Source of the DNA: a virus
Virus record (IMG/VR): IMGVR_UViG_3300021962_000077
Location: 9,585-73,584 of that record
DNA: 64,000 nucleotides
Reading direction: 5' to 3' (one strand)
Shown here: positions 8,825 to 60,228 of the stretch, piece by piece
Layout of the letters: each line of letters begins with the position of its first letter
How positions within the stretch are numbered: the first letter of the stretch is position 1
The notes under the pieces: generated by a model
Seen by the model: only the letters and a program-made list of their open reading frames with translations
What the model was told of the DNA's origin: nothing
The model's database searches: none
Position numbers and translations under genes: made by a program

Positions 8825-9658
8825 ATGGATTACTATGAAACACTAGGCGTAAGAAAAAACGCCACCCAAGAAGAAATTAAAAAGGCCTACAGAAGCCTAG
8901 CAAATAAACACCATCCTGATAAAGGGGGAGATCAAGCTAAATTTAAAGACATTAGTGTGGCCTATGATACACTCAGTGACCCGCAAAAACGTCAAGAATA
9001 TGATATGGGTGGAAGTCAAAACATTCATATCAATAGCGGCAATTTTCACGATGTATTTAATAATGCTTTTCAATTCCATTTTGGAGGAGGGCATCCATTT
9101 GGAGATATATTTGGACGTAGGCAGCATCGAAATCGAGACTTAAACATACAATGTCAAGTTACACTACTTGACTCGTTTTCTGGTAAACAGTTTGAAGCTA
9201 GTTACACATTACCTAGTGGAAAAAATCAAACAGTAGTAATTAATGTGCCGCCCGGAGTAGACAATGGAGGTACTATAAGATACCAAGGGCTAGGGGACGA
9301 TAGTATTCCTGGTATCCCTCGTGGAGATCTAAATGTCACTGTGATAATTATTCCAGATTCTAAATACGTGCGGCATAATGATGATCTGTATACTAATTTA
9401 GAAATAAATCCAATCGAAGCTATGATTGGCACTAGAAAGACTGTAAAAAATATAGACGGACAAGTGCTGAATATCGATGTACGTGCAGGAGTAAGTGATG
9501 GTACAGAATATGCAAGGGCAGGTATGGGATTTCCAAATATGCGAGGAGGAGCACGGGGAAGATTTGTTATAGTTGTAAAAATTAAAGCTCCGGCTGTGAC
9601 CAATCCAGACTTAATAAAAAAATTGCAAAAAATTAACGAAGAAATCAACGGCTCTTGA
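8825..9658 (+). CDS. dnaJ: DnaJ/CbpA-type co-chaperone
   Basis: J-domain DYYETLGV...HPDK, G/F region, DnaJ C-terminal domain, no zinc finger. Confidence 0.9.
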
Positions 9659-9705: not shown

Positions 9706-11967
9706 ATGGTAGAGCCTAGCAATGATTTACAAATGGTTTTTGAAAAAGCCATAAGTGTAGCCAAACAACTTCAGCATGAATATTTGACAATTGAACATTT
9801 GTTATTTGCCATGCTATGCGAAGAAAGTTTTAGTAATTGTATTTCAGGATACGGTGCAGACCCTGAGTACATAAAAAAGAATTTAGAACATTATTTGAAA
9901 AATAAATGTGATGAAATAGTAGGGGCTAGTACAGATGTTAAACCTCGAAAAACACAAACGGTAGAACGTGTATTAAATCGTGCATTTACACAAGTTTTAT
10001 TCAATGGTCGTCAAAAAATTGAACCCACAGATGTTTTTGTTGCTATGATGGCTGAAAAACGTAGTTGGAGTTACTACTACATTCAGCAAGCAGAAATAGA
10101 CAAAGATAAATTTGCCGAATATATCAACAGTGGAATAGAAAGTGACGAAGAAGAACAAGTGCCAGACAATCATGCAGATAAAGCATTAAAAGCATTTACC
10201 ACAAATCTAAACGATGCTGTTAAGAAAAATAAAGTAGATCCAGTAATTGGCAGAATTGAAGAACTGGAAAATATAAGCCTTGCATTGGGTAGACGCAGTA
10301 AGAATAATGTTATTCTTGTTGGAGATCCTGGTGTAGGTAAAACTGCCATTGCAGAAGGTCTAGCATTTAACATTGTTAAAGGTGCAGTTCCAGAATTTCT
10401 TAAAGACTATCAAGTGTTTAATTTAGACATTAGTGCTATGTTAGCAGGTAGCAAATATCGTGGAGATTTCGAAGAAAGATTTAAACTTGTACTAAAAGGC
10501 CTACAAAAGAAAGGTAAAACAGTACTGTTCATTGACGAAGCACACATGATTAGTGGTGCAGGTTCGGCTAGCAATAGTGCTAACGATCTTAGCAATATGA
10601 TGAAACCTGCTCTAAGTAAAGGTAATATCAAAGTAATTGCCAGCACTACTTGGGAAGAATATCGCAAACACTTCGAAAAGGATCGCGCATTGATGCGTCG
10701 ATTCCAACGTATTACTGTAGACGAGCCTACTACAGAAGTTACACTACAGATACTTAAAGGCATCAAAAAATATTATGAACAATTTCATAATACAAAAATT
10801 AAAGATGATGCTCTACAGGCTGCAATTAAACTTAGTGTAAGATATCAAACAGATAAAAAATTACCTGACAAAGCAATCGACTTAATCGACTTGGCTTGCA
10901 GCCGATTTAATCTTAAACTAGCAGATGAAAGAGTGGTAACTGAAAATGAAATTCAATTTGAAATAGCCAAACTTCTTCAAATGCCTGAAGAACAGATCAG
11001 AGAAGCAGAAGATGTAGGCTTAGTAAAATTAGAAGATCAATTATCAGGAGAAGTTTATGGACAAGGCAAAGCAATTACAGAAATTGTTGATAAGATTCTT
11101 GTTGCTAGGGCTGGACTTAAACCAGAAAACAAACCAGTTGGGAGTTTTGTATTCATGGGGCCAACCGGTTGCGGCAAAACAGAAACTGCTAAAGCTCTAA
11201 GTAAACACCTTGGTGTAAAACTTATTAGATTTGATATGAGTGAATATCAAGAAAAACACAGTATAAGTAAACTGATCGGTAGTCCTCCTGGGTATGTTGG
11301 CTTTGAAGAAAATGCCGGTCTGTTAATTACTCAGGTACAAGAGTCACCTAACTGTGTTTTATTATTCGATGAAATTGAAAAATCGCATCCTGATGTGAGT
11401 ACAGTATTATTACAAATGATGGATAACGGATTTGTTACAGGATCAAATGGGAAACGTGCTGATTGCAGAAATGTTATTTTAATTCTGACAACAAATCTTG
11501 GGGCTCAAGAAGCTGAAAAAAATACCATAGGTTTTGGTCGTCAAGAAAAAGATCATGATGATAAAGATCTTAAGAAATTCTTTACTCCAGAGTTCCGTAA
11601 TAGACTCGATGCGATTGTTACATTTAATAAACTAAACAAAGAGACTATGGTTAAAATTATTCATAAGTTTGTTGATGAATTAAAAGATCAAGTCAAAGAT
11701 AAAAGCATACGTGTTAAAATCGACTCTGCTGCTACAGAGTGGTTAATTGAAAAAGGGTTTGACGCTAAGATGGGTGCAAGACCGTTACAGCGTGTTATTG
11801 ATAAAGAAATTAAACGTCCTATGGCTAGGTTAATGCTATTTGGAGATTTAAAACAAGGCGGTAGTTTAAGTATTACTGTTAAAGATGATCAAATTTTCTT
11901 AGTAGCAAAACCAAAAGCAGTTCGGATACCATTATTAACTGTGGAAAAGACAAGTGATACGGTGTAA
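9706..11967 (+). CDS. clpA: ATP-dependent Clp protease ATP-binding subunit ClpA-like
   Basis: Clp N-domain, two AAA modules (GDPGVGKT, GPTGCGKT), IGF loop, GARPLQR. Confidence 0.92.
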   Translation: MVEPSNDLQMVFEKAISVAKQLQHEYLTIEHLLFAMLCEESFSNCISGYGADPEYIKKNLEHYLKNKCDEIVGASTDVKPRKTQTVERVLNRAFTQVLFNGRQKIEPTDVFVAMMAEKRSWSYYYIQQAEIDKDKFAEYINSGIESDEEEQVPDNHADKALKAFTTNLNDAVKKNKVDPVIGRIEELENISLALGRRSKNNVILVGDPGVGKTAIAEGLAFNIVKGAVPEFLKDYQVFNLDISAMLAGSKYRGDFEERFKLVLKGLQKKGKTVLFIDEAHMISGAGSASNSANDLSNMMKPALSKGNIKVIASTTWEEYRKHFEKDRALMRRFQRITVDEPTTEVTLQILKGIKKYYEQFHNTKIKDDALQAAIKLSVRYQTDKKLPDKAIDLIDLACSRFNLKLADERVVTENEIQFEIAKLLQMPEEQIREAEDVGLVKLEDQLSGEVYGQGKAITEIVDKILVARAGLKPENKPVGSFVFMGPTGCGKTETAKALSKHLGVKLIRFDMSEYQEKHSISKLIGSPPGYVGFEENAGLLITQVQESPNCVLLFDEIEKSHPDVSTVLLQMMDNGFVTGSNGKRADCRNVILILTTNLGAQEAEKNTIGFGRQEKDHDDKDLKKFFTPEFRNRLDAIVTFNKLNKETMVKIIHKFVDELKDQVKDKSIRVKIDSAATEWLIEKGFDAKMGARPLQRVIDKEIKRPMARLMLFGDLKQGGSLSITVKDDQIFLVAKPKAVRIPLLTVEKTSDTV

Positions 11968-12589
11968 AGAAACTAAAAAACTGTTCATGGACGAGTATGC
12001 TTACAAGGCAGTATTAGTTGTTCCAGGAGCACACTGGTTTAGATCAAATGATTTGGATGGTGTTAGTAAAAGAATACGTGCCCTAAAACGCGGTGGTAGT
12101 CCCTACAAGTCTGGTTTTATTACTATAAAAAATGAAGATGATCTACAGTATATAGAAAAACTTGTCAAAGTATTAAAGCAGATGACTGACTTTAATATTA
12201 GAGTTGAGATCCCGTTAGTCAGTGTCTATACTAATTTACCAACAGACATTGACAAATTATGTAGTTTAGATTCAGAACGAGTCAAATATATATCTAAACC
12301 TCCTAGCCAAGGACTAGATAAAAATATAGTTGTTATGAATCGTACAGGTTGGGATTTTAAAATAACACTAGGACCAACTAGCCAAAATTACAGTAATTTT
12401 GTCGAATGGGCAGAAAACGGGAAAGATCTTGTTAAATTAACAGGCAGCGCAAAGAGAGCTCTAATGCGTGACTCCCACTGGGGCGGCAGTCATTTTTATG
12501 CTAAAAACGACAAAGCAGTTACTATGACTCGTGTGTTTTTAGGCGATACAATCAGTAGAGTCGATCAAGTAGTTAATCTTAAAGATTAG
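11954..12589 (+). CDS. hypothetical protein
   Basis: 211 aa ORF overlapping the clpA stop. Confidence 0.55.
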   Translation: MIRCKETKKLFMDEYAYKAVLVVPGAHWFRSNDLDGVSKRIRALKRGGSPYKSGFITIKNEDDLQYIEKLVKVLKQMTDFNIRVEIPLVSVYTNLPTDIDKLCSLDSERVKYISKPPSQGLDKNIVVMNRTGWDFKITLGPTSQNYSNFVEWAENGKDLVKLTGSAKRALMRDSHWGGSHFYAKNDKAVTMTRVFLGDTISRVDQVVNLKD

Positions 12590-12645
12590 GAAATATCTGT
12601 ATACTGCGTTTACGATAAATACATTGTAAATGCAGGATATTTCTT
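12590..12645 (+). promoter_or_regulatory. late promoter inside an RBS-sequestering hairpin
   Basis: CTGCGTTTACGA-TAAATAca-TTGTAAATGCAG, with outer arms GAAATATC/GATATTTC. Confidence 0.6.
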
Positions 12646-12993
12646 ATGAAAATAATAGAGCTATTTGAGGACTTTCAACTACCTTCAGAAAAAAAGGACG
12701 ATAAACTACCCTTTGATCTTAAAGACGATTTAGAATTCTTCATGCGAAATGACGATGATTTTTATCGTCGTCACTACTATCCTCACATCATCAAATGTAA
12801 AAACTATATGGAATCAGGCAAAAACCTGGGTCCACGTGCATTTAAAAAACTTGTAAACCACGCTTACGAGTGCTATACTAAAAAATTCCCTGTTCGTCAA
12901 TTACCTGATTCATTAGAAGAAGACATAGTTAACAAGATATGTTCTAAATTGCATAATGAAGAAGTAAAATATATTAAAGAAAAAGTCTATTGA
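12646..12993 (+). CDS. hypothetical protein, putative head-internal
   Basis: Starts MKIIELFE. Confidence 0.55.
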   Translation: MKIIELFEDFQLPSEKKDDKLPFDLKDDLEFFMRNDDDFYRRHYYPHIIKCKNYMESGKNLGPRAFKKLVNHAYECYTKKFPVRQLPDSLEEDIVNKICSKLHNEEVKYIKEKVY

Positions 12994-12994
12994 T

Positions 12995-13726
12995 ATGAAA
13001 CTCAAAGAAGGCGGCAATGTAGTTCCAGGTGCTGTAGAACTTACACGCAAAAATTTTAATACAGCAGTACATAATCTAAAAAAAGTGTTGCCTGACGGTA
13101 TTAATGTATATCCTATTGGATCAGCTGGGCACAAAGAAGTTAGCAGTGACATTGATGCACTTATTGATGCCGGCGAACTTATGGCTGTTTTTCCCGCTAA
13201 AGAATTAAAATTAAGTCGTAAAGCATTAGAAGATTACTTTAAAGAACAAGGCCTGTTTGCTGCTAGAACAGGAGTAAGTATCCACGTTGGTATCCCTACT
13301 GGTGAAGGCGATAGCGTAGTACAAGTAGACTTAATGGCAGTAGAAAATGCTGCCCGCGTACAACCTTTACACACGCATGATTATACCGATCCAACTATGA
13401 AAGGTGGAACCTTACATGGTATGTGGGCAGATCTTGCCAACCTAAGTTCTTTACCCGATCATTCTAGTTTAATGATGAGTCCATATAAAGGTCTAGTAGA
13501 CAGAGAAACTAAAGAATTAATAACACACGACAAAGACGAGATAGCAAAAATTATTATCGGTCCTACTGCCAGTGCAAGCGACATGGGTAATCCTAAAAGA
13601 GTATTAGCCGCGCTACAACAATATCCAGACAAGTATAAAGCAATCAAAGACAAATACTTCCCACAAGAAAGTCTAGGCACAGCCAGTTGGTTTAGACAAA
13701 TGATTAATATTGCGAGCGTAAAATGA
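12995..13726 (+). CDS. Pol-beta-superfamily nucleotidyltransferase-like
   Basis: IGSAG...SSDIDALID...VQVDLM fits hGS-x-DxD plus a third Asp. Confidence 0.6.
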   Translation: MKLKEGGNVVPGAVELTRKNFNTAVHNLKKVLPDGINVYPIGSAGHKEVSSDIDALIDAGELMAVFPAKELKLSRKALEDYFKEQGLFAARTGVSIHVGIPTGEGDSVVQVDLMAVENAARVQPLHTHDYTDPTMKGGTLHGMWADLANLSSLPDHSSLMMSPYKGLVDRETKELITHDKDEIAKIIIGPTASASDMGNPKRVLAALQQYPDKYKAIKDKYFPQESLGTASWFRQMINIASVK

Positions 13727-14874
13727 GACTAAGACAACTGTTTGAAGCTGCGCCTCCGGCTGTTGGTCGTAAATATCAACATATTGAAGATCTTGTTTTC
13801 ACCAATGGTTCAAGTGGTGGCTTGCATGCCATTGAACGTATGCGTCATATGACAGAAGCAGGTGGCAACATTGAATTAAAATGGGATGGCAGTCCTGTTA
13901 TATATTGGGGCAGAGATGAAGCGGGTAGATTTAGTCTAATACCAAAAAATGCTTGGGAATATCTCAAAAGAGGTAAAACAGAAACTAATACTGGTGCCAA
14001 GACAGTAATGAATTCTGCAGAAGATGTTAGAAATTTTATCATGCAGACCGGCAAAGCAGAACCAGGTAGAGAAGCAGAAAGAAAACAGTACGCTAAACAA
14101 CTAGCTGATCTTTGGCATTTGTTTGAACAGGCTAGTCCTGAACGTGGATTTATTGAAGGCGGTCTATTATTCTTTCCTGGTGCGCCAGCTGTACTAAACA
14201 AACAAACACTAGAATGGGATTTCACTCCTAATATTACCAGTTTCCATATACCAAAAGATTCAGAACTAGGTAAACGTATTGGCAAAGCTAAAGTAATGAT
14301 TGCTGCCACTGGCTACTATGAATCACTGGGTAGTAGTGATGAATCACGTTATCCGAACGCAGAAGAATTATCTACACCCACAGTTATTGTGCAAGGTACT
14401 ACCTATGTAGAAGAAGCACCTAATATTCCGCAAGAAGGTCTTGACCGTATAGAAAATTTCATACAAACAAATGCTGCTGCCATTGACGGATTTATTGCAG
14501 GTCAGCCTGGTCTAAGTAAACCAGGTGATGTTCTTTATAAGTTTTACAATCAAAATTTACGAATAGCTGGTGTTAAGCAAAAGTTTATCGATTGGGCTAC
14601 TGCTAATTTGTCAGCAGGACAAGCACAAAAGGTAGTAAAAGATCCTAGACTAAATGTTGTATTAGATGCTGTGGAAATGTTAACTAACGAAAAGATGAAG
14701 ATTATTCAACAGTTAAGTCAAGGTACACATGGAAATATTAGACAGACTAAACCAGAAGGTTATGTGCAAGCGCATCCAGGAGCACGAGCATCTGGAGAAC
14801 CGTTTAAACATGATTTGCCTGGACAGTTTGTCAAGGCTATTGACCAAGCCAATTGGGCTCCAAGGAAAGACTAA
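13723..14874 (+). CDS. ligase-like covalent nucleotidyltransferase-fold protein (KxDG)
   Basis: HIEDL, ELKWDGSP (motif I-like), PEGYV (motif IV-like), FVK (motif V-like). Confidence 0.55.
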   Translation: MRLRQLFEAAPPAVGRKYQHIEDLVFTNGSSGGLHAIERMRHMTEAGGNIELKWDGSPVIYWGRDEAGRFSLIPKNAWEYLKRGKTETNTGAKTVMNSAEDVRNFIMQTGKAEPGREAERKQYAKQLADLWHLFEQASPERGFIEGGLLFFPGAPAVLNKQTLEWDFTPNITSFHIPKDSELGKRIGKAKVMIAATGYYESLGSSDESRYPNAEELSTPTVIVQGTTYVEEAPNIPQEGLDRIENFIQTNAAAIDGFIAGQPGLSKPGDVLYKFYNQNLRIAGVKQKFIDWATANLSAGQAQKVVKDPRLNVVLDAVEMLTNEKMKIIQQLSQGTHGNIRQTKPEGYVQAHPGARASGEPFKHDLPGQFVKAIDQANWAPRKD

Positions 14875-14875
14875 T

Positions 14876-15682
14876 ATGCGTCTAAGAGAATTATTACAAG
14901 AAGATATAGATAGAACAGGCGAAGGTAAAAGTGCAGTTGTAGGCTGGGGGCGTGGTATGGGGCATAAAGGCCATATGTTCTTGGCCAGTAGTGTTATTAC
15001 ACAAGCCAACGATACCGATAGTGATCCATATTTTGTTGTTAGTCGTACTGTTGGCAAAGATGATCCTATTACGCCAGAAGAAAAATTAGCAATTTATAAA
15101 AAAGTATTTCCTAAACACGGTCATATCTTTCAAACAGCTACAGAAGAAATGCCCGACCTTACACGAGTCTTAACTAGATTAAATCAGCATGGGTACACAG
15201 ATGTAACTGTGGTTGTAGGTGCAGATCAAGTTAACGCTCTAAGTTATGTAAAAAATTATAATGGTAAACCTAACAAAGCAGGAGATATTCCGTTTCATTT
15301 TAACACATTAAATGTTATCAGCAGACAAGAAACAAATGATCCAAGCCGCGAACAAGAAGGACCACGTGCTACACCTATGCGAGCTGCTTTAATGGATCCT
15401 ACAAAGTCAGAAGAAGAAAAATTTGCTGTATGGCGTGATGCTATGAGTCCAGAGCTTAGTGACGAAGAAGTTATGGATCTAATGCAGAAAGCACAACAAC
15501 GTATGGCTAGTTTTGAAAAACCTAAAGCGGCAAAGAAAAGTAAAGAAAAAGAAGTAGCAGAAGTTGCACCCAAAGGTTGGGAAGGTACTGTTAAAGCTAT
15601 GAAGAAACACGATGATATTGATAATCCATGGGCACTAGCACATTGGATGAAAAACAAAGGCTATAAAAGTCATAAGAAATGA
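14876..15682 (+). CDS. HxGH-class nucleotidyltransferase (cytidyltransferase-like)
   Basis: VVGWGRGMGHKGH, KDDPIT.EEK, VVVGADQ, RATPMRA; start reassigned to ATG 14876. Confidence 0.65.
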   Translation: MRLRELLQEDIDRTGEGKSAVVGWGRGMGHKGHMFLASSVITQANDTDSDPYFVVSRTVGKDDPITPEEKLAIYKKVFPKHGHIFQTATEEMPDLTRVLTRLNQHGYTDVTVVVGADQVNALSYVKNYNGKPNKAGDIPFHFNTLNVISRQETNDPSREQEGPRATPMRAALMDPTKSEEEKFAVWRDAMSPELSDEEVMDLMQKAQQRMASFEKPKAAKKSKEKEVAEVAPKGWEGTVKAMKKHDDIDNPWALAHWMKNKGYKSHKK

Positions 15683-15966
15683 AACAGTATAGAATTACAT
15701 CAGCCGATATTAATCAAAGTAGCCCAGACGATTGTTATCTTGCACCTGAAGATCCTATACATGAATTAAAAGCCATACAACATCTAGCTGGATTAGGCAG
15801 TGATGCTAGACTACATGAATTGCGTGTCAAACAAGGTAGTAATATATCTGTAACTGGTATGGAAAAAGCAGAGCTAATGCGTAAGCATAATATTAAACCC
15901 GGAACTGACGAATGGTTTAAACTTTGGTTTAGCAAGCCTTATCTTACAGGAGAAAAACCTGTATGA
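15679..15966 (+). CDS. hypothetical protein
   Basis: Start/stop overlaps on both sides; IKPGTDEWFKLWF. Confidence 0.55.
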   Translation: MKQYRITSADINQSSPDDCYLAPEDPIHELKAIQHLAGLGSDARLHELRVKQGSNISVTGMEKAELMRKHNIKPGTDEWFKLWFSKPYLTGEKPV

Positions 15967-17366
15967 AAATTTTAGATATTCTTGAAGACCAAACTGATCA
16001 GCCAGATCTGATACAGGCATTTAAAGATTTCCTGCCGTTGGCAATGAAAGAACTTGATCTTTCTCAACTACCACCTATTAAATTAGAACCAAAAATAGAA
16101 CAAAAAAATCAGCCCACCTTTGGACGGTTTCAAGAAAAGGCACAGGTGATTTATCTTGGTATAAAAAATAGGCATCCTATTGACATACTAAGAACTCTGG
16201 CACACGAGCTTGTACACTATAAACAACTATTAGACGGTAAACTTGGAAGTAAGCACAGTGGTGACACCGGAAGTCCAACTGAGAACGAAGCACATGTAAG
16301 AGCAGGAATTATAATGAGACATTTTGGCAAACAATTTCCTCATTATTTTGATGATCAAGCAGTAGAACTAGACGAAGATGCAAGTGATCGTGAAATACAT
16401 AACTATGAAAAACTAGACAAGATTCTAGTTTTATTATGTAAAATGGTCGTTAAAGGTCAAAAGAAAGACAAAGATTACTATGGTATGGTTGCAGCCTGTG
16501 TTTTAGATCCCGATAATCGCATGGTTGCTAAGGTAAACTATCCTAGAGAAGACGGACTACGTGTTCATGCAGAACGTGCTGCTATGGAAGCATATTATGA
16601 CAAATATGGAGAAATACCCGAAGGTAGTATTGTAGTGACCACACTAAGTCCTTGCAATGAGTTTAGTGACGAAACAGCAGACGGACGTGCGGGTAACAAC
16701 TGTGTAGATCTAATTAATAATAGTCCAATACGTAAAGTCTATTGTGGTTATATGGATCCTAGTCAAGGTGACGAATCACATGCGGAACGTGACTTTAATC
16801 TTATGGAAACTGAAAACGGTAGCATACGTGAACTATGCAAATCTTTTGCAGATACTTTTTTAGACGAAGATCAACATCCAAATGACATACCACGCGGTCC
16901 TGAATTTAAACCTACTATGCCAGCAGGTACTGTTAGAGTAGATGTAAGCGATGTATATGACTGGTATAAGTTAGGTAAAAATATCAGCAACTTAGGTAAT
17001 GCTAAAGCTAGTGATTTTGGTAAGGGACCTCCTAGTACTATTATGGCATTTGGCAGCGAGCCTGAAGAACACAAGTATATTAAGAATCTAAAGAAGTTAG
17101 GATTAGATACTACTGACATAGATCCCCTTGATCCTAAGCAACCTAAAAAAATGCCTCGTCAGAAGGTTGATCCTACTTACAACGTAGGAGAAAATTTTGC
17201 TGATGGTAAAAATCCTGGACGCAAAGGTCTAGCCAAACGCAGCGGTGTTAATACTAAAGCATCAGTAAGTACATTACGCAACGTGGCTAAACACAGCTCG
17301 GGTGAAAAGGCTCGTATGGCACATTGGCTAGCCAACATGAAGGCTGGTAAGGCTAAAAAGAAATGA
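15963..17366 (+). CDS. multidomain protein: HExxH metallopeptidase-like plus cytidine-deaminase-like
   Basis: TLAHELVH...ENEAH; HAERAAM...LSPC...C; basic C-terminal module. Confidence 0.6.
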   Translation: MKILDILEDQTDQPDLIQAFKDFLPLAMKELDLSQLPPIKLEPKIEQKNQPTFGRFQEKAQVIYLGIKNRHPIDILRTLAHELVHYKQLLDGKLGSKHSGDTGSPTENEAHVRAGIIMRHFGKQFPHYFDDQAVELDEDASDREIHNYEKLDKILVLLCKMVVKGQKKDKDYYGMVAACVLDPDNRMVAKVNYPREDGLRVHAERAAMEAYYDKYGEIPEGSIVVTTLSPCNEFSDETADGRAGNNCVDLINNSPIRKVYCGYMDPSQGDESHAERDFNLMETENGSIRELCKSFADTFLDEDQHPNDIPRGPEFKPTMPAGTVRVDVSDVYDWYKLGKNISNLGNAKASDFGKGPPSTIMAFGSEPEEHKYIKNLKKLGLDTTDIDPLDPKQPKKMPRQKVDPTYNVGENFADGKNPGRKGLAKRSGVNTKASVSTLRNVAKHSSGEKARMAHWLANMKAGKAKKK

Positions 17367-17962
17367 CTCTAGTTTATATACATGGTGCAAGTGCTACTAG
17401 CGAAAGTTTTAACTACATTCGCGAGCACATACCCGGAAAAAACATATCTGTTAACTATAACAGTGCCGATGGGTTTGAACATAACCTTAAAGATATGCAG
17501 ACTGCACTAACAGATATAGAAGATATTTTCTTTGTTGCACACAGCCTAGGGGGTATTTACGCATTGCACCTTGCAAATTATATGCCCAATCAAGTTATAG
17601 GTGCTGTAACTCTAAGCACGCCATATGGCGGTGCAGAACATGCAGACTATGCCAAATATTTTTTACCTTTTAGTAGATTACTACGTGATATAGGACCTAG
17701 TAGCTGGCCTATGCGACAAGCAAATAAAATAGAAATACACCATCCTTGGACCAATGTAGTTACTGTGAAAGGATCGGCCCCTTGGATTATAGGCGATAAT
17801 GATGGTGTTGTCACTGTTCGTAGCCAAAAAGAACACGAACACGATATGGAAATTATAGAAGTAAACATTAATCATTACGAAGTAGTGCTAAGTGAACAAG
17901 TTGTTGACATTATTAAAGAACGAATAAATATGCATACGAGTCAAAAATATGAAAATACTTGA
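17363..17962 (+). CDS. alpha/beta hydrolase
   Basis: YIHGA, AHSLGG nucleophile elbow, STPYGG, NDGVV, NHYEV. Confidence 0.85.
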   Translation: MTLVYIHGASATSESFNYIREHIPGKNISVNYNSADGFEHNLKDMQTALTDIEDIFFVAHSLGGIYALHLANYMPNQVIGAVTLSTPYGGAEHADYAKYFLPFSRLLRDIGPSSWPMRQANKIEIHHPWTNVVTVKGSAPWIIGDNDGVVTVRSQKEHEHDMEIIEVNINHYEVVLSEQVVDIIKERINMHTSQKYENT

Positions 17963-18326
17963 AATCATTACGGAAAGCGGTGGAATGAAACCTATACATC
18001 CGCAGCACAAAGCGGCTATTAAAAATGCCACTACTTTTCCATCGATGAATATGAATTCTGGAAGTCAATATTTAGGATATCGTATGGGCATTGCTCTAGC
18101 AGGTGCTCCTGAATATCCCACTAAACAAGAAGCAGATAACTGGATCGGAGGAGATCCTTTACTAGCGCCATATACTGAAGAAGAAAACGAAATGATAAAT
18201 GCCGCTGCCAAACAAGTAGGCGGAGGTAAAAGGCAAACATGGAGTAACAATCGCAGCTTAGAAACTGCGGATGTAAACAAAACAAGTCCTGTGGCTAAAC
18301 GCAAAAAGAACAAATACGGAGTTTAA
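17949..18326 (+). CDS. hypothetical protein, putative head-internal
   Basis: Starts MKILEIITE. Confidence 0.55.
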   Translation: MKILEIITESGGMKPIHPQHKAAIKNATTFPSMNMNSGSQYLGYRMGIALAGAPEYPTKQEADNWIGGDPLLAPYTEEENEMINAAAKQVGGGKRQTWSNNRSLETADVNKTSPVAKRKKNKYGV

Positions 18327-18327
18327 A

Positions 18328-18963
18328 ATGAAGATAACAGATTTATTAAATGAAGAACAGATTGCAGAAATTAGTCTAGGTGATTATCGTAAAAAAGCTA
18401 TGTTAAACAAAGCCATGGCTCAGACAGACAAATTTTTTGGCCGTGACGATCCTGAAAAAGTAGCTCATGCTGATAGAACTATTGCAAAGAGAGAAAAGGG
18501 TCTAGCCCGTGCAGATCATCGTGCAGAGAAAAAATTACAAGCAATGCCAAAACACGAACCAGCTCCTCGTGATCCTGCTGCTGATGCAGAACGATTGGCT
18601 AAAATGAAAGCACGTTTTAGACAGCTAGGCGGAACTAGTTATCAATATGCAGATAGGATGAGTGACGATGATCGTGAAGCACAAGATCTACATCAGGCTA
18701 TTCAACGTTTAGAAAGACACTTAGGAGAAACTGCTAGTGCCGGTGCTACTAGTGCTGCTAGTATTGGTACTGTAGATGCCCCACATATTAGCCCAGGTAA
18801 AGCACGTGGTAAAAAGAGCTATACCGGTAGCCCTAGTACAGGGTCCGGGACAAAAGCACCACCACAGCCTAAGATTATACAGCCTAAAACCAGTTCAGGT
18901 ACTGCTAAGAATGCATTAGATATGAAGGGCGCGAACTTATTCGGCGCACCTATTAAACGATAA
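18328..18963 (+). CDS. hypothetical protein, putative head-internal
   Basis: Starts MKITDLLNE; internal ETASAGATS module. Confidence 0.55.
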   Translation: MKITDLLNEEQIAEISLGDYRKKAMLNKAMAQTDKFFGRDDPEKVAHADRTIAKREKGLARADHRAEKKLQAMPKHEPAPRDPAADAERLAKMKARFRQLGGTSYQYADRMSDDDREAQDLHQAIQRLERHLGETASAGATSAASIGTVDAPHISPGKARGKKSYTGSPSTGSGTKAPPQPKIIQPKTSSGTAKNALDMKGANLFGAPIKR

Positions 18964-18986: not shown

Positions 18987-20126
18987 ATGGATTTACAACC
19001 TCATCCAGACGACCACGAAGCTAAAATGGCTCGCGCTGACCTTTTTAAACTAGCACAGTATTCATTTAAACTGTTTAAGATGATTCACGAAGATATGGAA
19101 TTAGAAGGCTGGGTGCAGGCTAAGATTACCAAAGCTGCTGATTATATTGCTTCAGTATATCACTATATGGAATACGAAATGAAGTTTAGTGAGTATGGTG
19201 AAAGATTAGAACAATCTGACATGTATTCTTCTATGAGTGAAAGTCAGCAACGTGCTATTAAGCACATGTTAAGTGAAGCAAAAGAAACTATGAAAAAGTT
19301 AAATGCTGCACAGGCTAAAAAACTTAAGAAAAAAGGTAGTAAAGTTGAAGAAGCTTCTAAACCAGATTTCTTAGACATGGATAAAGATGGTGACAAGAAA
19401 GAGCCGATGAAGAAAGCTGTCAAAGACAAGAAGGTCAAAGAAGGTTTTCCAACTGTTGATGATGCTCGTAAGCGTCATGAACAAGAAAAAGGTACTGGTA
19501 AATTTGACAAGAAAGAAACTGAAAAAGGTACACAGTATACACGCAAATCTAGTACATTCACCGACGGCGGTGATGATAGTGATGTAAAAGCAGCTAAAAA
19601 GAAAGCCAAGAAAACCGACGAAGGCGTAATGGACACAGTTAAGAAAGTTGGCAAGAAAGTTGCCGGCGCTGTTAACAAAGCAGTTGGTCATGGCAGTGAT
19701 GAAGACATGATTAAAGATCTACAACGCAAGTCAGGTGCTCCCGTTACAGGCAAAAAACCTGCACCAGTCAAAGAAGCCAGCAAAAAGAAAGCTGACAAAG
19801 ACTATGACGGTGACGGCAAAGTTGAAAGCGGTAAAGACGAATACTTAGGTAGTCGTATTGCTGCTGCTAAGAAGGCCGGCAAAATGGAAGAAGCTGCTAA
19901 ATGTAATCACACACCAAAAGGTAAATCTTGCCCAGTACATGGACTAAAAGAATGCGGAATGACCTATGAAAGTTCCACTGGCGATTACTCAGCTAAGAAA
20001 GCGGCCGCAGGTAAAGACATCGGCAAGCCAGGCAAGAATTTTGCTAAGATTGAAAAGTCTGCAGGTGGTGGCGAAAAAGGCAAGCGTATTGCTGGTGCAG
20101 TTCTAGCTAAATTACGCAAAGGCTAA
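18987..20126 (+). CDS. Lys-rich low-complexity protein, putative prohead core/internal protein
   Basis: TAAATA at 18961; repeated V-x-E-A/G junctions; DMDKDGD and DYDGDG motifs. Confidence 0.55.
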   Translation: MDLQPHPDDHEAKMARADLFKLAQYSFKLFKMIHEDMELEGWVQAKITKAADYIASVYHYMEYEMKFSEYGERLEQSDMYSSMSESQQRAIKHMLSEAKETMKKLNAAQAKKLKKKGSKVEEASKPDFLDMDKDGDKKEPMKKAVKDKKVKEGFPTVDDARKRHEQEKGTGKFDKKETEKGTQYTRKSSTFTDGGDDSDVKAAKKKAKKTDEGVMDTVKKVGKKVAGAVNKAVGHGSDEDMIKDLQRKSGAPVTGKKPAPVKEASKKKADKDYDGDGKVESGKDEYLGSRIAAAKKAGKMEEAAKCNHTPKGKSCPVHGLKECGMTYESSTGDYSAKKAAAGKDIGKPGKNFAKIEKSAGGGEKGKRIAGAVLAKLRKG

Positions 20127-20132
20127 TTTGTA

Positions 20133-21248
20133 ATGGACATGAAGAAAATTCTACAGGCTATGGACGGTGCTTCTACAAAGCCTGTAGAAGGTGTCAATAG
20201 CATGGCTAAATTTCTTAGTGTTGTTAAAGAAGCAGAAGTAGCAGCACCGGTTTCAACACTACCTCCAGAACAATTAGAATATAATCGTCTAAGAGCACAA
20301 GTTGATACTTTAAATTTTATGCAAAGTGATAGAGCTAACAGCAATACTTTTGTAGATCAAGATCCTCAACTAGTAGTTAAACAAAATGCCATGCGAACAA
20401 AATTAGCTCAGATGGCTGCTGCATTAAAGGCCAAAGGTATAGATGCTGCCGCTGAATACGATGCTCCAGAGCCAGGTGATCAACCTGCACAACCAGTTGA
20501 CCTAGCACAAAAATATAATAGTAAAAAACCGCCTGTGCCGACTCAAGAAAATAAAACTGGCAAAATTAAACAATATTTTGAAGCTGTTCAAACAGAAGCT
20601 CAACAAGCATTTGATCAACGTCGAGCAAAGTTCAAAGAACAAGCTCGACGAATAGCACAGCGTATGCGTGAAGATGCCAAAGTTAGTGCTATAGATCCTG
20701 CTAAGAAAACTATTACCTATACTGATCCACAAACAGGAATTTCTACCACTGTTCCGCAGGCCATGGCCAAACCAGGAGAAGGCGGACAGGTAATGATTGA
20801 TAAGAATCAAGTTGATCAAGCGGTAGGTCAAAGCCAGCCGCCAGCAATCAAAGTTGGTGATACAATTAAAATGTTAGATACTGAGTCTAGCAGTGCAAGT
20901 GTACGTATGCACAGAGCATTGCAACGCGAAAAAGAAAAGCGTGAGTTTAGTCAACGCTATGCTGAGAAACATTTCCCCATAGGTAAGAAACCTGAGCCAA
21001 TTAAAGAACCAAAGAAAGACCAAGATGTAATTGAATACGGTGATACTGCCAAAGGTCAAAAGATGTTGACTAAGGTGCAGAAACGTGCCGTAGATAGAGT
21101 AGTATCTAAAAAAGCAGAAACAGATCCTAAGTATGCTAAGAAGAACGCAGATACTGCTGACCGTGCTTGGGAAAGAATGACAGACAAGGATGTAGCGGAA
21201 GGCAACGAAGATCCTTCTTGGATAAACAATCTAAGGCTTAGAAAATAA
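20133..21248 (+). CDS. hypothetical protein, putative head-internal
   Basis: 371 aa charged, modular ORF. Confidence 0.55.
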   Translation: MDMKKILQAMDGASTKPVEGVNSMAKFLSVVKEAEVAAPVSTLPPEQLEYNRLRAQVDTLNFMQSDRANSNTFVDQDPQLVVKQNAMRTKLAQMAAALKAKGIDAAAEYDAPEPGDQPAQPVDLAQKYNSKKPPVPTQENKTGKIKQYFEAVQTEAQQAFDQRRAKFKEQARRIAQRMREDAKVSAIDPAKKTITYTDPQTGISTTVPQAMAKPGEGGQVMIDKNQVDQAVGQSQPPAIKVGDTIKMLDTESSSASVRMHRALQREKEKREFSQRYAEKHFPIGKKPEPIKEPKKDQDVIEYGDTAKGQKMLTKVQKRAVDRVVSKKAETDPKYAKKNADTADRAWERMTDKDVAEGNEDPSWINNLRLRK

Positions 21249-21685
21249 TGGATGAGCAACTAATTAAAGCAATGAAGATGGCACATGCAAATACATTTGC
21301 ATTCTATCTTAAAACACATGGATTTCACTGGAATGTTGAAGGTGAAAATTTTCCTCAGTATCATACGTTCTTCGAAATGATATACAGCGAAGTATACGGA
21401 TCTGTAGATAAATTTGCAGAAGAAATTCGTGCTTTAGGTTCATATGCTCCTGCAGGGTTAGGACGACTAATGGAATTAGCCGGTATTGAAGATCAACGTG
21501 AAGTAGTCGATGCTAGAATGATGTTAGAAATACTGTATCAAGATAATCAAACAGTTTTAGAAAGTGTTGGACAAGCCTACGAACTAGCAGAAAATGCTGG
21601 AGCACATGGTCTAAGTAATTTCTTAGCCGAGCGTCAAGATGCACATAAAAAACATGCTTGGATGATTAGAGCAACATTAAAGTAA
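21248..21685 (+). CDS. dps: Dps/ferritin-like DNA-protecting protein
   Basis: KTHGFHWNVEG.NF..YH..FE, DKFAEEIRALG, HKKHAWMI. Confidence 0.9.
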   Translation: MDEQLIKAMKMAHANTFAFYLKTHGFHWNVEGENFPQYHTFFEMIYSEVYGSVDKFAEEIRALGSYAPAGLGRLMELAGIEDQREVVDARMMLEILYQDNQTVLESVGQAYELAENAGAHGLSNFLAERQDAHKKHAWMIRATLK

Positions 21686-25128: not shown

Positions 25129-27801
25129 ATGAGCTATGTAGACGCATGGTTCGATCGCGAGAACGACATTATCAAGATTGTCGAGCGTTCGAACCAAGGT
25201 AAAAGAGAATTTAGAGACATACCTGTTAGGTATACATTTTACTACGAAGATGCACGTGGTAAATTTCAATCAATTTATGGCACGCCGTTATCAAGAGTTG
25301 TTTGCCGTAATTCAAAAGATTTCCGTAAAGAAATGGCCATACACTCTAACAAAAAGATGTATGAAGCAGACATTAATCCAATCTTTGTTTGTCTAAGTGA
25401 AAATTATTTAAATCAAGACGCACCAAAACTAAACACTGCCTTCTTTGACATTGAGGTAGACTTTGATCCAGAACGTGGGTATGCTAGCCCAGACGATGCA
25501 TTCATGCCAATTACTGCTATCGCAGTTTATCTGCAATGGTTAGAAACAATGGTCTGCCTAGCTATTCCGCCTAAGGGAATGAGTATTGACACCGCCAAAG
25601 AACTAGTAAAAGATTTTCCTAACACACATATTTTTGACAACGAAGCAGATTTGTTAGACACATTTTTGAAATTAATCGAAGATGCAGATGTTATCAGTGG
25701 TTGGAACTCAGAGGGTTTTGATATTCCCTATACTACCAATCGCATTACCAAAGTACTCAGCAAAGACGATACACGCAGGATGTGCTTGTTTGGACAGTAT
25801 CCTCGCAAGCGTGAATATGAAAAATATGGAAAACAGGCCATAACATATGATATGATTGGTCGTGTACACTTAGACTATCTTGAATTATATCGTAAGTACA
25901 CATATGAAGAACGTCACAGCTACAGACTAGATGCCATTGCCGAATATGAATTAGGTGAACGTAAAACACAATACGAAGGCACACTTGATCAACTATACAA
26001 CAATGACTTTAAAAAGTTTGTTGAATATAACAGACAAGACTGTGCGCTTCTTGATCGATTAGATAAGAAACTAAAGTTCTTAGATCTTGCCAATAAACTG
26101 GCACATGAAAACACTGTACTACTACAAACAACAATGGGTGCTGTGGCTGTGACAGAACAGGCCATTATTAATGAAGCACATCGCAGAGGATTTCAAGTTC
26201 CCAATCGTACTAAAATGGACGATCGTGAGAGCAACGAAGGTGCCGCGGGTGCCTATGTTGCTTACCCTAAAGAAGGCCTACAAGATTGGATTGGATCACT
26301 GGACATTAACAGTCTATATCCCAGTGCTATTCGTGCGCTTAACATGGGTCCAGAGACTATTGTGGGGCAGTTACGTTCTACATACACAGATGAGTACATA
26401 ACAGAACAAACTACTCTTAAAAAGAAAACGTTTGCTGCCGCGTGGGAAGGATTGTTTGGATCGCTAGAATATGAAGCTGTTATGCGGCAAGATCGCGGAG
26501 TCGATGTTACTATCGACTGGGAATCCGGAGAAAGCGATACACTTAGTGCCGCAGAAATATACAAATTAATTTATGATAGTAATCAACCTTGGATGTTAAG
26601 TGCCAATGGAACTATTTTTACATGGGAAAGAGAAGGAATCATTCCCGGATTATTAAAACGATGGTATGCTGAACGTAAAGAGATGCAGGCCAAATTAAAG
26701 GAGAGCAAAGATGCAGGCAATGATATTGAAGAAGAGTATTGGGATAAGCGACAATTGGTTAAGAAAATTAACCTCAATTCGCTTTACGGTGCGATCCTTA
26801 ACCCTGGCTGTCGCTTTTTCGATAAGCGTATTGGGCAATCTACCACTCTTACTGGGCGACAGATTGCCAAGCACATGGCTGGAAAAGTCAATGAGATCAT
26901 CACTGGAGAGTTTAATCATGTCGGCAAGGCAATCATATACGGTGACACAGATTCTTGTTATTTCTCAGCATATAAAACCTTAAAGAAAGACATAGATAGT
27001 GGACAAATACCTTGGACTAAAGAAACTGTCGTACAACTTTATGACCAGATTGGAGAAGAAGTAAACACAACGTTCCCACAGATGATGCTAGACTCTTTTC
27101 ATTGTCCAAAGAGTCGTGGTGAAGTTATCAAAGCAGGACGAGAAATCGTTGCATCAAAAGGATTGTTTATTACTAAGAAACGTTATGCCGTACTCTATTA
27201 TGACAAAGAAGGCAAACGAGCAGATGTTGACGGTAAACCTGGTAAAATCAAAGCCATGGGCTTAGATCTAAAACGCAGTGATACTCCAGAATTTATTCAA
27301 GACTTTCTAAGTGATGTATTAGAAAAAGTACTAACAGGTGCAACTGAAGAAGAAGTTTTAAATCAGATTACAGAATTCCGCACTCTATTTAAGGCTAGAC
27401 CTGGCTGGGAGAAAGGATCTCCTAAACGTGCTAATAATATTACTGAGTATCAGGCTAAAGAAGTCAAACAGGGCAAGGCCAATATGCCGGGTCACGTAAG
27501 AGCCAGTATAAATTGGAACACGCTTAAACGCATGATGGGAGACAAATATTCGATGAGTATTACAGATGGTGCTAAAGTAATCGTGTGTAAAATTAGAGAT
27601 AATCCTATGGGGTTTACTAGTGTGGCATATCCAGTAGATGAACTACGGTTACCGCAATGGTTTAAGGATCTGCCATTTAACGATGCTGAAATGGAAACTA
27701 CTATCATTGATAACAAATTAGATAATTTGATTGGCGTACTAGGTTGGGATATTAGATCAACTGAAGAAAAAAATACGTTTAATAGTTTATTCGAGTTTTA
27801 A
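25129..27801 (+). CDS. family B DNA polymerase (T4 gp43-like)
   Basis: ExoI FFDIEV, ExoII GWNSEGFDIPY, DINSLYPS, KINLNSLYG, YGDTDS, KKRY. Confidence 0.96.
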   Translation: MSYVDAWFDRENDIIKIVERSNQGKREFRDIPVRYTFYYEDARGKFQSIYGTPLSRVVCRNSKDFRKEMAIHSNKKMYEADINPIFVCLSENYLNQDAPKLNTAFFDIEVDFDPERGYASPDDAFMPITAIAVYLQWLETMVCLAIPPKGMSIDTAKELVKDFPNTHIFDNEADLLDTFLKLIEDADVISGWNSEGFDIPYTTNRITKVLSKDDTRRMCLFGQYPRKREYEKYGKQAITYDMIGRVHLDYLELYRKYTYEERHSYRLDAIAEYELGERKTQYEGTLDQLYNNDFKKFVEYNRQDCALLDRLDKKLKFLDLANKLAHENTVLLQTTMGAVAVTEQAIINEAHRRGFQVPNRTKMDDRESNEGAAGAYVAYPKEGLQDWIGSLDINSLYPSAIRALNMGPETIVGQLRSTYTDEYITEQTTLKKKTFAAAWEGLFGSLEYEAVMRQDRGVDVTIDWESGESDTLSAAEIYKLIYDSNQPWMLSANGTIFTWEREGIIPGLLKRWYAERKEMQAKLKESKDAGNDIEEEYWDKRQLVKKINLNSLYGAILNPGCRFFDKRIGQSTTLTGRQIAKHMAGKVNEIITGEFNHVGKAIIYGDTDSCYFSAYKTLKKDIDSGQIPWTKETVVQLYDQIGEEVNTTFPQMMLDSFHCPKSRGEVIKAGREIVASKGLFITKKRYAVLYYDKEGKRADVDGKPGKIKAMGLDLKRSDTPEFIQDFLSDVLEKVLTGATEEEVLNQITEFRTLFKARPGWEKGSPKRANNITEYQAKEVKQGKANMPGHVRASINWNTLKRMMGDKYSMSITDGAKVIVCKIRDNPMGFTSVAYPVDELRLPQWFKDLPFNDAEMETTIIDNKLDNLIGVLGWDIRSTEEKNTFNSLFEF

Positions 27802-42268: not shown

Positions 42269-42302
42269 TAAATATATGCGTAGTTATCAAGGACGCATAT
42301 AT
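42269..42302 (+). promoter_or_regulatory. late promoter plus RBS-sequestering hairpin
   Basis: TAAATA overlaps ATATATGCGT...ACGCATATAT, which brackets AAGG and reaches the ATG. Confidence 0.55.
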
Positions 42303-59619: not shown

Positions 59620-60228
59620 TTATACTCCTGCTAGACCAGTTAAAGTCTGTATACGTACAGTATAATCTATTTGTATTAGTCTGTTTAAACTTTTTTGTAC
59701 AGGATGGAATATTACGTGAGTCAGCAATAAACTTTGACCTGTAGAGCTATATGATCTTAATCCTAGCTCATCGAATACGTAACTGGATCCATTATCTGTA
59801 GTATTATCAAATGCTTGTTGATCACTAGGTTCGCCATAATCTAAAAGACAAGTTACAAAAATATCTGTATAATTTGTACCAGTAACGTGTCTAGATTCGA
59901 CAAAATTTCTAGTTGGGTCTATATTAGTACTAGACCTATCGTCAACTACTTTATAATAGGTTCTGTTATATAAGCTAGAGTTAGTGCCAGTAGTATTTGT
60001 ACTCAGATATGTAATAATACCTGTAGGATCTACCGCAGTTCCCCCGTTACCAAAATCCATTTGATATATAAATCCTTGCCCAGAATTAGCTAAACTTTCT
60101 GCTAGAGCAACACTCATATTTTCGTAATGTATAGCATTACGCTTGTTGACAAAAACTTCATCAGTAGAAGGATCCCATATTTTAATATGACCTTCTAAAT
60201 GAACTCCGGAAAAATCCTTTTTTTGCAT
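59620..60228 (-). CDS. putative baseplate/tail protein
   Basis: FDELGL...LTHVIFHPVQKS; structural operon context. Confidence 0.55.
   Translation of the reverse strand: MQKKDFSGVHLEGHIKIWDPSTDEVFVNKRNAIHYENMSVALAESLANSGQGFIYQMDFGNGGTAVDPTGIITYLSTNTTGTNSSLYNRTYYKVVDDRSSTNIDPTRNFVESRHVTGTNYTDIFVTCLLDYGEPSDQQAFDNTTDNGSSYVFDELGLRSYSSTGQSLLLTHVIFHPVQKSLNRLIQIDYTVRIQTLTGLAGV

Follow-up and report, generated by a model that had tools for sequence, protein, structure and literature searches.

Three adjoining genes of a giant T4-related phage, here called g1, g2 and g3, encode three different kinds of nucleotidyltransferase that are bound together by gene order and by repeated fusion. We tentatively propose that they form a late-made, probably head-delivered set for filling and sealing broken nucleic acid, leaning to the phage's own damaged or nicked DNA. 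The genes lie at 12995–15682 of the 64-kb stretch analysed here, referred to as the window (positions 9,585 to 73,584 of IMG/VR virus record IMGVR_UViG_3300021962_000077, itself a 73.6-kb fragment with a CheckV completeness of 21%). T4-type genes in the window include a DNA polymerase (25129–27801) and a minus-strand group of tail-fibre-like genes (about 53.8–63.8 kb); ATPases among its replication genes match clamp-loader models weakly. Of the related contigs, one of 399,796 bp is rated complete, and the phage therefore falls in a giant T4-related group; metagenomes are rich in relatives of this group. The three genes are:

12995..13726, plus strand: g1, 243 amino acids, predicted minimal Pol X-like nucleotidyltransferase with palm, thumb and small helical tail; putative propeptide MKLKE before GGN.
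13723..14874, plus strand: g2, 383 amino acids, DUF6267, candidate ligase-like covalent nucleotidyltransferase; leader MRLRQLFE before AAPPAVGRKYQH.
14876..15682, plus strand: g3, 268 amino acids, nucleotidyltransferase domain with the HIGH signature (HxGH) at about residues 1–215, then a basic C-terminal tail; leader MRLRELLQE.

The three genes are tightly translationally coupled: g1 and g2 overlap in ATGA, g2 ends in TAA followed by a single t and the ATG of g3, and g3 overlaps the next gene in another ATGA. According to its homologues g3 begins at ATG 14876 (MRLRELLQ); the mechanically called open reading frame (ORF) opens at 14729. A sequence-only reading of this DNA had picked out three ORFs with GS..DxD..D, KWDG/EGYV/K and GHKGH motifs. 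All are there, and they fall on the conserved columns of the respective families (48, 55 and 31 sequences); they are therefore not chance strings.

The strongest evidence that g1, g2 and g3 share one common task comes from fusions: every pair of the three domains is fused somewhere, g1 and g2 in both orders. We surveyed 80 related IMG/VR loci, a separate set of 80 cyanophage-type loci and 150 representatives of the g1 family, which an exhaustive HMMER search had gathered into 165 representative clusters. With the domains of g1, g2 and g3 denoted PolX, Lig and HIGH, the 150 representatives include 18 PolX–Lig, four Lig–PolX and two PolX–Lig–HIGH proteins (P0261 and P0322). A Pfam scan of 67 of the longer representatives found DUF6267 in 23, CTP_transf_like in three and RNA_ligase (PF09414) in one (6.3e-5), together with the unrelated partners GNAT (two), sigma-70 region 4, RuvA_C and DUF6630 (one each). 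The partners of the PolX domains of P0242, P0253, P0270, P0307 and P0389 include a GNAT acetyltransferase, sigma-70 region 4, RuvA_C and an intein splicing domain (below cut-off).

Gene order points the same way. By tblastn, g1 and g2 are separate neighbours accompanied by g3 in 39 of the 80 related loci, a single g1–g2 ORF is followed by g3 in 22, and 19 give no g1 match. Fourteen of these 19 were inspected: seven have a divergent g1 of 287–297 amino acids directly upstream (L048, L065, L068, L072, L073, L074 and L075), and no upstream g1 is present in the other seven (L008, L009, L016, L017, L031, L036 and L061). With a hidden Markov model derived from the g1 alignment, 71 of the 80 loci show a PolX-type ORF whose N terminus is in view. 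The gene after g2 is g3 in 77 of the 80 loci; two of the misses end 1–2 bases past g2, and L016 has room after g2 yet gives no g3 match. Among the cyanophage-type loci, a HIGH gene follows the DUF6267 gene within 700 nt in 72 of 80, the remaining eight being cut off within 600 nt. In the S-PM2 RefSeq record (L172, NC_006820, 2526–4305), p141 holds an N-terminal piece of DUF6267 and p142 its C-terminal piece plus the HIGH domain; a 591-residue S-PM2 'cytidyltransferase-like' protein in BFVD, which spans both, matches the g2 model (E 1.6e-15), and an artefact of sequencing or annotation in the older record may account for the split. A 269-residue protein upstream of DUF6267 in cyanophage DSL-LC02, considered as a counterpart of g1, is not g1-like. 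Collinearity inside one phage group proves little alone; the fusions and the distant group weigh more. Linkage in relatives, which the sequence-only reading had set as its own test, is strong both by synteny and by fusion of every pair.

The first partner, g1, carries its GS..DxD..D motif at G42-S43 (13118–13123), D52-I-D54 (13148–13156) and D112 (13328–13330). Across a 48-sequence alignment G42, D52, D54, Q110 and D112 are invariant, and S43 is kept in at least 90%. No Pfam, PHROG or NCBIfam model matches g1, and tblastn against 50,697 phage records returned nothing at E ≤ 0.01; cultured or deposited phages thus contain no relative of g1 at that sensitivity. The structure is more informative: the AlphaFold (AF2) model has a mean predicted local distance difference test score (pLDDT) of 93.8, and the best 50 rows of a Foldseek search of the PDB are all DNA polymerase (Pol) lambda, mu or beta or terminal deoxynucleotidyltransferase (TdT), at E 7.5e-6 to 3.6e-5. 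In VIA, an all-against-all aligner, rows 1–8 for the predicted model all belong to family X (Z 9.4–10.1), with 157–176 residues aligned over model residues 2–210. The Pol beta palm–thumb structure 3lqc is matched at Z 10.1 over 167 residues, and Pol X of African swine fever virus (ASFV; 5hr9) at Z 9.8, with a root-mean-square deviation (rmsd) of 3.2 over 157 residues of a 176-residue chain. Other nucleotidyltransferases, such as terminal uridylyltransferases and cGAS/DncV-like nucleotidyltransferases (CD-NTases), align over about 83–104 palm residues in most rows.

Sequence profiles reach this fold faintly. The Pfam Pol X palm (PF14792) and thumb (PF14791) models each touch three of the 48 relatives, weakly (E 0.009–0.016); the window protein itself matches no Pfam family, the cut-offs of these two included, and the g1 profile finds in the PDB weak matches to the GS..DxD region only (Tailor terminal uridylyltransferase, 0.01; Pol lambda, 0.25–1). 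At 243 residues g1 is without the 8-kDa lyase and fingers domains, and its alignments open at the palm of Pol beta, lambda and TdT. The predicted model places g1 on the Pol X branch, as a protein of two domains, about the size of ASFV Pol X, that has a helical tail in addition. The sequence-only reading had placed it with Pol-beta nucleotidyltransferases of the cGAS, CCA-adding or AMPylase type; the superfamily stands, but the Pol X thumb and the longer Pol X alignments speak against those enzymes and for a Pol X-like one. RlaP was also rejected as its identity: PF10127 is matched by none of the 48 members at E ≤ 1, and hhalign with T4 NrdC.11 gives a probability of 0.06% (E 0.76).

The second partner, g2, belongs to the Pfam family DUF6267 (PF19782), whose cut-off is 27 and with which it scores 58.4 bits (E 1e-15). 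The family model also matches 54 of the 55 members of the g2 alignment, which draws on the giant-phage group, on T4-like cyanophage-type contigs (about 21–24% identical) and on multi-domain representatives. Its motifs are K53-W-D-G (13879–13890), E345-G-Y-V (14755–14766) and K371 (14833–14835), and E22, D23, K53, D55, G56, G63, E345, G346 and K371 are invariant. We take an early KxDG followed by a late EG and Lys to be ligase motifs I, IV and V in order; the nearly invariant G146 and L149 would, in our reading, be motif III. The AF2 model (pLDDT 91.3) recovers RNA and DNA ligases in all of VIA rows 1–21, at Z 4.6–6.4 and rmsd 4.5–6.8, where Z of about 8 is the tool's safe level. The top matches are NgrRnl (5cot, Z 6.4), REL1 (6.2), Trl1 (5.8) and T4 Rnl2 (5.4), with Chlorella virus and other DNA ligases at Z ≤ 5.0; the best Foldseek rows, all weak, are the Trl1 ligase domain (top, 9.3e-3), T4 Rnl1, an archaeal RNA ligase, REL1 and DNA ligases.

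Among Pfam families the window protein matches PF19782 alone and none of the ligase families PF01068, PF09414 and PF09511; one of the 55 relatives matches PF09414 (6.3e-5) and two match PF09511 (best E 0.0093). The sole local stretch that hhalign aligns with T4 Rnl1 is EGYV..FK. The protein ends 12 residues past K371, without an oligonucleotide/oligosaccharide-binding (OB) domain, and residues 238–332, about 95 in all, form a helical region placed between the central sheet and motifs IV and V. We consider it quite likely that g2 belongs to the covalent nucleotidyltransferase (ligase) superfamily, so that the ligase-like label given by the sequence-only reading keeps its motifs, accompanied by a moderate fold match. 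DUF6267, with matches in 468 phage records, ranks among the most common proteins without an assignment in T4-type phages of marine and fresh waters; we found no paper on it in the literature.

The third partner, g3, has its motif H30-K-G-H33 at 14963–14974, and G25, R26, G32, H33, S56, G115, A165 and R169 are invariant across 31 sequences. The N-terminal motif reads HKGH in the window and P-T/H-x-G-H in cyanophage members; a second signature, with A165 and R169, reads RATPMR in the window and MSASKLR in cyanophages, and we take this region to be the ISxTxxR-type second HIGH signature. The protein matches phrog_3041 'cytidyltransferase' (1.9e-23) and is homologous to the 'cytidyltransferase' annotated in T4-like cyanophages since S-PM2 (8e-13, 138 phage records). 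PF01467 is matched by 12 of the 31 family members (best 2.2e-9), and 27 of the 30 Atlas hits of the window protein fall in PF01467 clusters (score 0.95). Together with the alignment, these matches bear out the HxGH nucleotidyltransferase of the sequence-only reading as HIGH-type.

The window protein itself has no Pfam or NCBIfam match above cut-off, and no nicotinamide mononucleotide (NMN) or nicotinic acid mononucleotide (NaMN) adenylyltransferase model is listed for it. Three cyanophage relatives lean weakly to NadD/NadR, with 18–24 bits for TIGR00482 against a cut-off of 112 (best 3.1e-5) and 15–18 bits for TIGR01526 against a cut-off of 341 (best 0.0017). The g3 profile finds chance-level rows only in the PDB, and a single cyanophage g3 finds nothing useful there. 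Conservation is limited to the first 215 or so residues, and the tail is variable. Judged by these sequence comparisons, g3 is a HIGH-type nucleotidyltransferase that leans to NMN adenylyltransferase (NMNAT) and stays under every curated cut-off. A complex prediction for g2 with the g3 domain (residues 1–215) scored 0.00 in both runs, which were made without controls, and has no bearing either way. The window holds a second HIGH-type nucleotidyltransferase, unrelated to g3, at 1228–1665; it resembles RfaE domain II and glycerol-3-phosphate cytidylyltransferase (TIGR02199 4.9e-23, below cut-off).

The domain boundaries of these proteins carry a shared mark. A Glu directly precedes the start of the Lig domain (A..GRKYQH) in 80 of 80 cases, free proteins and fusion linkers alike, and the position three before the domain is hydrophobic in the strings inspected, as in the free protein MKIRELIIE/AAA and the linkers ..VNE/AAA, ..LQE/AAP and ..FFE/AAA. 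Likewise, Glu precedes GGN in all 71 of the 71 PolX domains, and leaderless g1 relatives open at MGGN or MSGN. In the window, the leaders of g2 (MRLRQLFE/AAPP) and g3 (MRLRELLQE/D) are about 8–9 residues long. The leader pattern M-K/R-I/L-x-E/D/Q-L/I-L/F-..-E occurs in five of the 132 window ORFs that start with ATG and have at least 60 codons, all of them within 12646–18963; g3 has a sixth N terminus of this type, which the scan missed owing to the upstream ATG. This distribution suggests that the leader-type block at 12646–18963 consists of head-internal cargo genes.

The cleavage consensus of gp21, the T4 head protease, is L/I-x-E. The T4 internal proteins IPII and IPIII start with MKTYQEFIAE/A, cyanophage g3 homologues with MKSFLRFLSEA, and gp154 of cyanophage S-CREM2, which belongs to the g3 family (hhalign 7.5e-41), with MKNFSSFLTEA. 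In T4, internal proteins are loaded into the head by means of a capsid-targeting sequence, and gp21 trims their propeptides C-terminal to Glu (PMC3012670, PMC5694885). By analogy, the leaders and linkers are, in our reading, probable sites for T4-type capsid targeting and for cleavage by the gp21 protease. In the complete relative there are genes for a gp21-type protease (PF03420, 3.5e-26), a gp23-type capsid protein and an adjoining scaffold-like protein; no gp21-family protease was found in four fragmentary relatives. In the complete relative (G001; L166, 234–2523) the scaffold-like protein starts with MLDVLKGLFE, and the gp23-type protein has ..ALLE/G, ..TLE/N and ..YLAE/T near its N terminus; these are possible sites for a protease of the same type.

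Virion data exist for one family. The S-CREM2 report places the cytidylyltransferase gp154 among 52 proteins identified by mass spectrometry of caesium chloride-purified virions, with three peptides and 11.2% coverage, and notes that cyanophage virion proteomes often contain enzymes of this kind; the text passages of its virion table make no mention of DUF6267 (PMC10665884). From the N termini, injection or head delivery of g1–g3 seems plausible. The 'injected module' of the sequence-only reading is favoured by the leaders and linkers, by a late-promoter-like motif described next, by the relative's gp21-type protease and by this one virion report of a g3 homologue, and goes no further than plausible.

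The motif ATAAATA occurs seven times in the window, counting both strands, and six of the seven lie 25–33 nt before a gene start, one of them ahead of the gene, g0, that heads the coupled block:

12615..12621, plus strand: ATAAATA, motif resembling a late promoter, 31 nt ahead of the g0 start at 12646.
17924, plus strand: ATAAATA, before the gene start at 17949.
18960, plus strand: ATAAATA, before the gene start at 18987.
42268, plus strand: ATAAATA, before the gene start at 42301.
60256, minus strand: ATAAATA, before the gene start at 60228.
55336, minus strand: ATAAATA, before the gene start at 55311.
12646..12993, plus strand: g0, 115 amino acids, leader MKIIELFED, head of the coupled block.

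A single base separates the TGA stop of g0 from the g1 ATG. For g0 there is no match in Pfam, PHROG or NCBIfam, an Atlas search with it returned unnamed viral clusters only, and in many related loci it stands upstream of g1 and g2. On the minus strand, the gene at 55311 has tail-fibre-type matches, and the gene at 60228, inside the tail-fibre-like block, matches an unnamed PHROG family only. We read ATAAATA as a candidate late-type promoter of this phage group.

A polymerase-type nucleotidyltransferase with a thumb, repeatedly fused to a ligase-type enzyme, points to the filling-in and sealing of strand breaks. In such a scheme g1 would act as a minimal Pol X-type polymerase that extends the 3'-OH of a gapped or recessed end by the missing nucleotide or nucleotides; g2 would close the nick left behind in the manner of a ligase, through a Lys53–nucleoside monophosphate (NMP) intermediate; and g3, as an accessory, would most likely make or regenerate the adenylate cofactor by chemistry of the nicotinamide adenine dinucleotide (NAD) type. 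The mature enzymes would be packed in the head and reach the cell together with the DNA. We favour DNA because g1 resembles Pol X, because late timing and probable head loading suit a template that must be intact before any gene is read, and because DUF6267 is near-universal in cyanomyoviruses, which are described as being without a gp30 homologue. These points put DNA slightly ahead of RNA as the substrate. The sequence-only reading had listed RNA end repair among its options: end repair is the best supported of them, be it of RNA, as listed there, or of DNA.

Several observations weigh against this repair scheme. The role of g3 is its weakest link, left unexplained by the rest. The fold match of g2 is moderate, its maximum Z of 6.4 lying under the safe level of about 8; Foldseek returns nothing from the PDB at E ≤ 0.001, the g2 profile finds none of all PDB sequences at E ≤ 10, and hhalign with T4 Rnl2 and Rnl1 gives probabilities of 0.35% and 1.4%, which are not significant. 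The missing OB domain and RNA ligases as nearest folds favour RNA over DNA, and the complete relative carries a canonical DNA ligase (PF01068) as well, which makes g2 dispensable for replication there. As for delivery, the sequence-only reading saw a leader on each gene, which holds for g2 and g3, but g1 of the window has only the five-residue MKLKE/GGN (relatives have MLLRELF..LxE/GGN). The cyanophage DUF6267 proteins have no leader; the S-CREM2 gp154 gene is not adjacent to a DUF6267 gene; and the authors of that virion study caution that carry-over in the preparation is possible (PMC10665884). Late timing is also open to objection, in that the classic T4 late promoter TATAAATA is depleted in the window (one observed, 9.6 expected); it was rejected on this count as the promoter of the block, and the shorter ATAAATA was put in its place.

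The alternative that survives best, although we think it unlikely, is that the genes form an RNA repair set, acting on tRNA, against host ribonuclease defences, in which g1 would restore 3'-end nucleotides and g2 would religate, as RlaP is predicted to do beside RNA ligases. The g2 evidence leans this way: its best fold matches are the RNA ligases NgrRnl, REL1, Trl1 and T4 Rnl2, with the Trl1 ligase domain as Foldseek's first choice; it is without an OB domain; PF09414 occurs fused to one g1 relative, and PF09511 is touched by two of the 55 g2 members; and a canonical DNA ligase is already present in the complete relative. Yet the Z gap between RNA and DNA ligases in the g2 comparisons is below 1.5, effectively a tie. 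There is also precedent, RlaP being found beside RNA ligases in jumbo phages (PMC7824862) and adding one or two NMPs to RNA 3'-OH ends (PMC12776372). However, g1 is no RlaP by the PF10127 and hhalign comparisons above, and the folds closest to it are those of DNA polymerases, which have a template-binding thumb. Moreover, no kinase, phosphatase or 2H end-healing gene is present among the scanned ORFs at 11954–18963, and late expression with head loading suits RNA repair less well than early expression would.

We regard as improbable a third possibility, that the enzymes are not packaged and have a late role in the cytoplasm, for example in filling and sealing concatemeric DNA before packaging, their N termini serving coupling, assembly or Clp-like turnover. 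The late-promoter-like motif before the block would suit such a role, as would the position of the cyanophage pair amid replication and recombination genes (DNA polymerase, UvsX, primase and MazG), the leaderless cyanophage DUF6267 and its absence from the S-CREM2 virion table text, and a ClpA/B-like gene that is syntenic with the block. Cyanomyoviruses are also described as being without a gp30 ligase homologue (PMC2984593), which would leave the cytoplasmic sealing job free. What this possibility leaves unexplained is the hydrophobic-x-Glu at every domain boundary, linkers included (80 of 80 and 71 of 71), and the start of leaderless homologues exactly at the predicted cut; the g3 homologue with a T4-like leader in a virion proteome also argues for packaging.

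A bolder proposal, which we rate a long shot, is that g2 and g3 divide ligation between them in a two-enzyme pathway of a kind not known before, in which g3 would adenylylate the 5'-phosphate of the broken strand (giving AppDNA or AppRNA) or would charge g2. To our knowledge, HIGH-type nucleotidyltransferases always join an NMP to a phosphate, and it is for this reason that direct 5'-phosphate adenylylation or charging of g2 comes into consideration. If this were true, the pair together with g1 would be a self-contained, capsid-preloaded strand-mending machine; sun-damaged or nuclease-nicked phage genomes would be repaired before any phage gene is expressed; and the g2–g3 pair would be the 'missing' ligase of T4-like cyanophages.

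We know of no place in cofactor or signal synthesis for the fusion of a ligase-type Lys enzyme with a polymerase-type nucleotidyltransferase. Modification of a small nucleotide or of protein (a signal nucleotide, an NAD-type cofactor countering NAD-depleting defences, or protein NMPylation) is the least probable role, very unlikely in our view: the cyanophage g3 relatives lean weakly to NMN/NaMN adenylyltransferase models (TIGR00482 and TIGR01526, above), the S-CREM2 authors name their enzyme an NMNAT homologue (PMC10665884), and CD-NTases and a MenT toxin are among the palm-only matches of g1 (Z 6–7.4), but g3 scores 14–24 bits against cut-offs of 112–341, the CD-NTase palm rows cover about 91–104 residues (a longer row, of 164, has rmsd 7.0) against 157–176 for Pol X, and no Nampt- or Nudix-type partner is found among the scanned ORFs. 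For the signal-nucleotide synthesis and protein NMPylation suggested by the sequence-only reading, we found no support.

Returning to fill-in and sealing by head-delivered enzymes, known systems offer partial parallels. ASFV packages its Pol X and its DNA ligase, which act together on DNA as a minimal viral pair for base-excision repair. Like g1, which superposes on the whole of it, ASFV Pol X (174 amino acids) consists of palm and thumb only, is without the 8-kDa and fingers domains and has a ligase-type partner, and ASFV ligase is among the weak g2 matches. The two Pol X-like proteins are, however, 17% identical, and g1 has an extra C-terminal helical part at about 200–243 and reaches no Pfam Pol X cut-off; its partner is a DUF6267 protein without an OB domain, a third enzyme of HIGH type is linked to the pair, and the host is bacterial. 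Repair RNA ligases (NgrRnl/Rnl5, REL1, T4 Rnl2, T4 Rnl1 and Trl1) are the best structural neighbours of g2 (Z 5.2–6.4 over 173–191 residues) and have KxDG, EG and the late Lys in matching order, but their profile similarity to g2 is not significant, the Z scores are below the safe range, and g2 has the helical insert of about 95 residues at 238–332.

The T4 head cargo (IPI–IPIII and Alt) shares a leader of about ten residues with hydrophobic-x-Glu followed by Ala (MKIRELIIE/AAA in relatives, MRLRQLFE/AA in the window); the putative cargo here, in contrast, would be nucleic-acid enzymes, sometimes multi-domain polyproteins. With NMN/NaMN adenylyltransferases and other PF01467 enzymes, g3 shares (H/T)xGH, a GxD strand and an S/A-x-x-x-R column; it differs in staying below the model cut-offs in the window and in a family tie to a ligase-like enzyme, and we know of no such genetic tie described for NMNATs. 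RlaP (PF10127) beside RNA ligases is likewise a Pol-beta-superfamily nucleotidyltransferase tied to a ligase, with predicted nucleotide restoration before sealing, but g1 is outside PF10127 and has a Pol X thumb, its partner is DUF6267 and not Rnl1, Rnl2 or RtcB, and fusion and head-type leaders like those of g1–g2 are not described for RlaP in the available text of either source (PMC7824862, PMC12776372).

Each of the folds is already known, and a nucleotidyltransferase that works beside a ligase is in print. We did not find in print DUF6267 as a ligase-type protein, a minimal phage Pol X-like enzyme fused to DUF6267, or the three-way tie with a HIGH-type nucleotidyltransferase behind T4-type leaders; a literature search on polymerase X, jumbo phage and RNA ligase returned nothing that describes the trio, and one on the cyanophage cytidyltransferase, spelled 'cytitidyltransferase', returned nothing. 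If DUF6267 is a ligase, it would answer a question left open in print for cyanomyoviruses, described as being without a gp30 ligase homologue (PMC2984593), and the Pol X-type fusion with DUF6267 would be the smallest polymerase–ligase repair unit known in phages. If the enzymes are carried in the capsid, the T4 'internal protein' idea, so far covering inhibitors and an ADP-ribosyltransferase, would come to include a repair kit ready for use, with a bearing on the survival of phage particles exposed to sunlight and host nucleases.

The surroundings of the block have features of their own. Just upstream lie a DnaJ-like protein (8825–9658) and a ClpA/B-like ATPase of 753 residues (9706–11967; phrog_4871 'ATP-dependent protease', 3.8e-248). 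The Clp-like gene is syntenic with g0–g3 in most of the 80 related loci, and the loci that lack it mostly start so close to g1 that the region is out of view; a chaperone or unfoldase beside a leader-tagged block may not be a coincidence. Downstream, 15963–17366 encodes a leader-bearing protein of 467 residues with a HELVH zincin-like motif near residue 80 and a cytidine/deoxycytidylate deaminase domain at residues 161–262 (PF00383, 1.3e-8); its C terminus, ..AHWLANMKAGKAKKK, resembles that of g3, ..AHWMKNKGYKSHKK. An alpha/beta hydrolase without a leader (17363–17962) also lies inside the leader block, followed by a protein that is part of g3 in some relatives:

17949..18326, plus strand: leader-bearing protein of 125 amino acids, fused to the g3 C terminus in some relatives.

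In P0399, P0407, P0417 and P0448 the g3 domain runs on into sequence that can be aligned with this ORF. The fusion junction reads ..L-R-E/G.. and the free protein ..IITE/SGG, L-x-E taking the place of the leader. A few genes downstream of the block, 21248–21685 encodes a 145-residue Dps/ferritin-like 'DNA binding protein' (phrog_3636, 4.2e-32).

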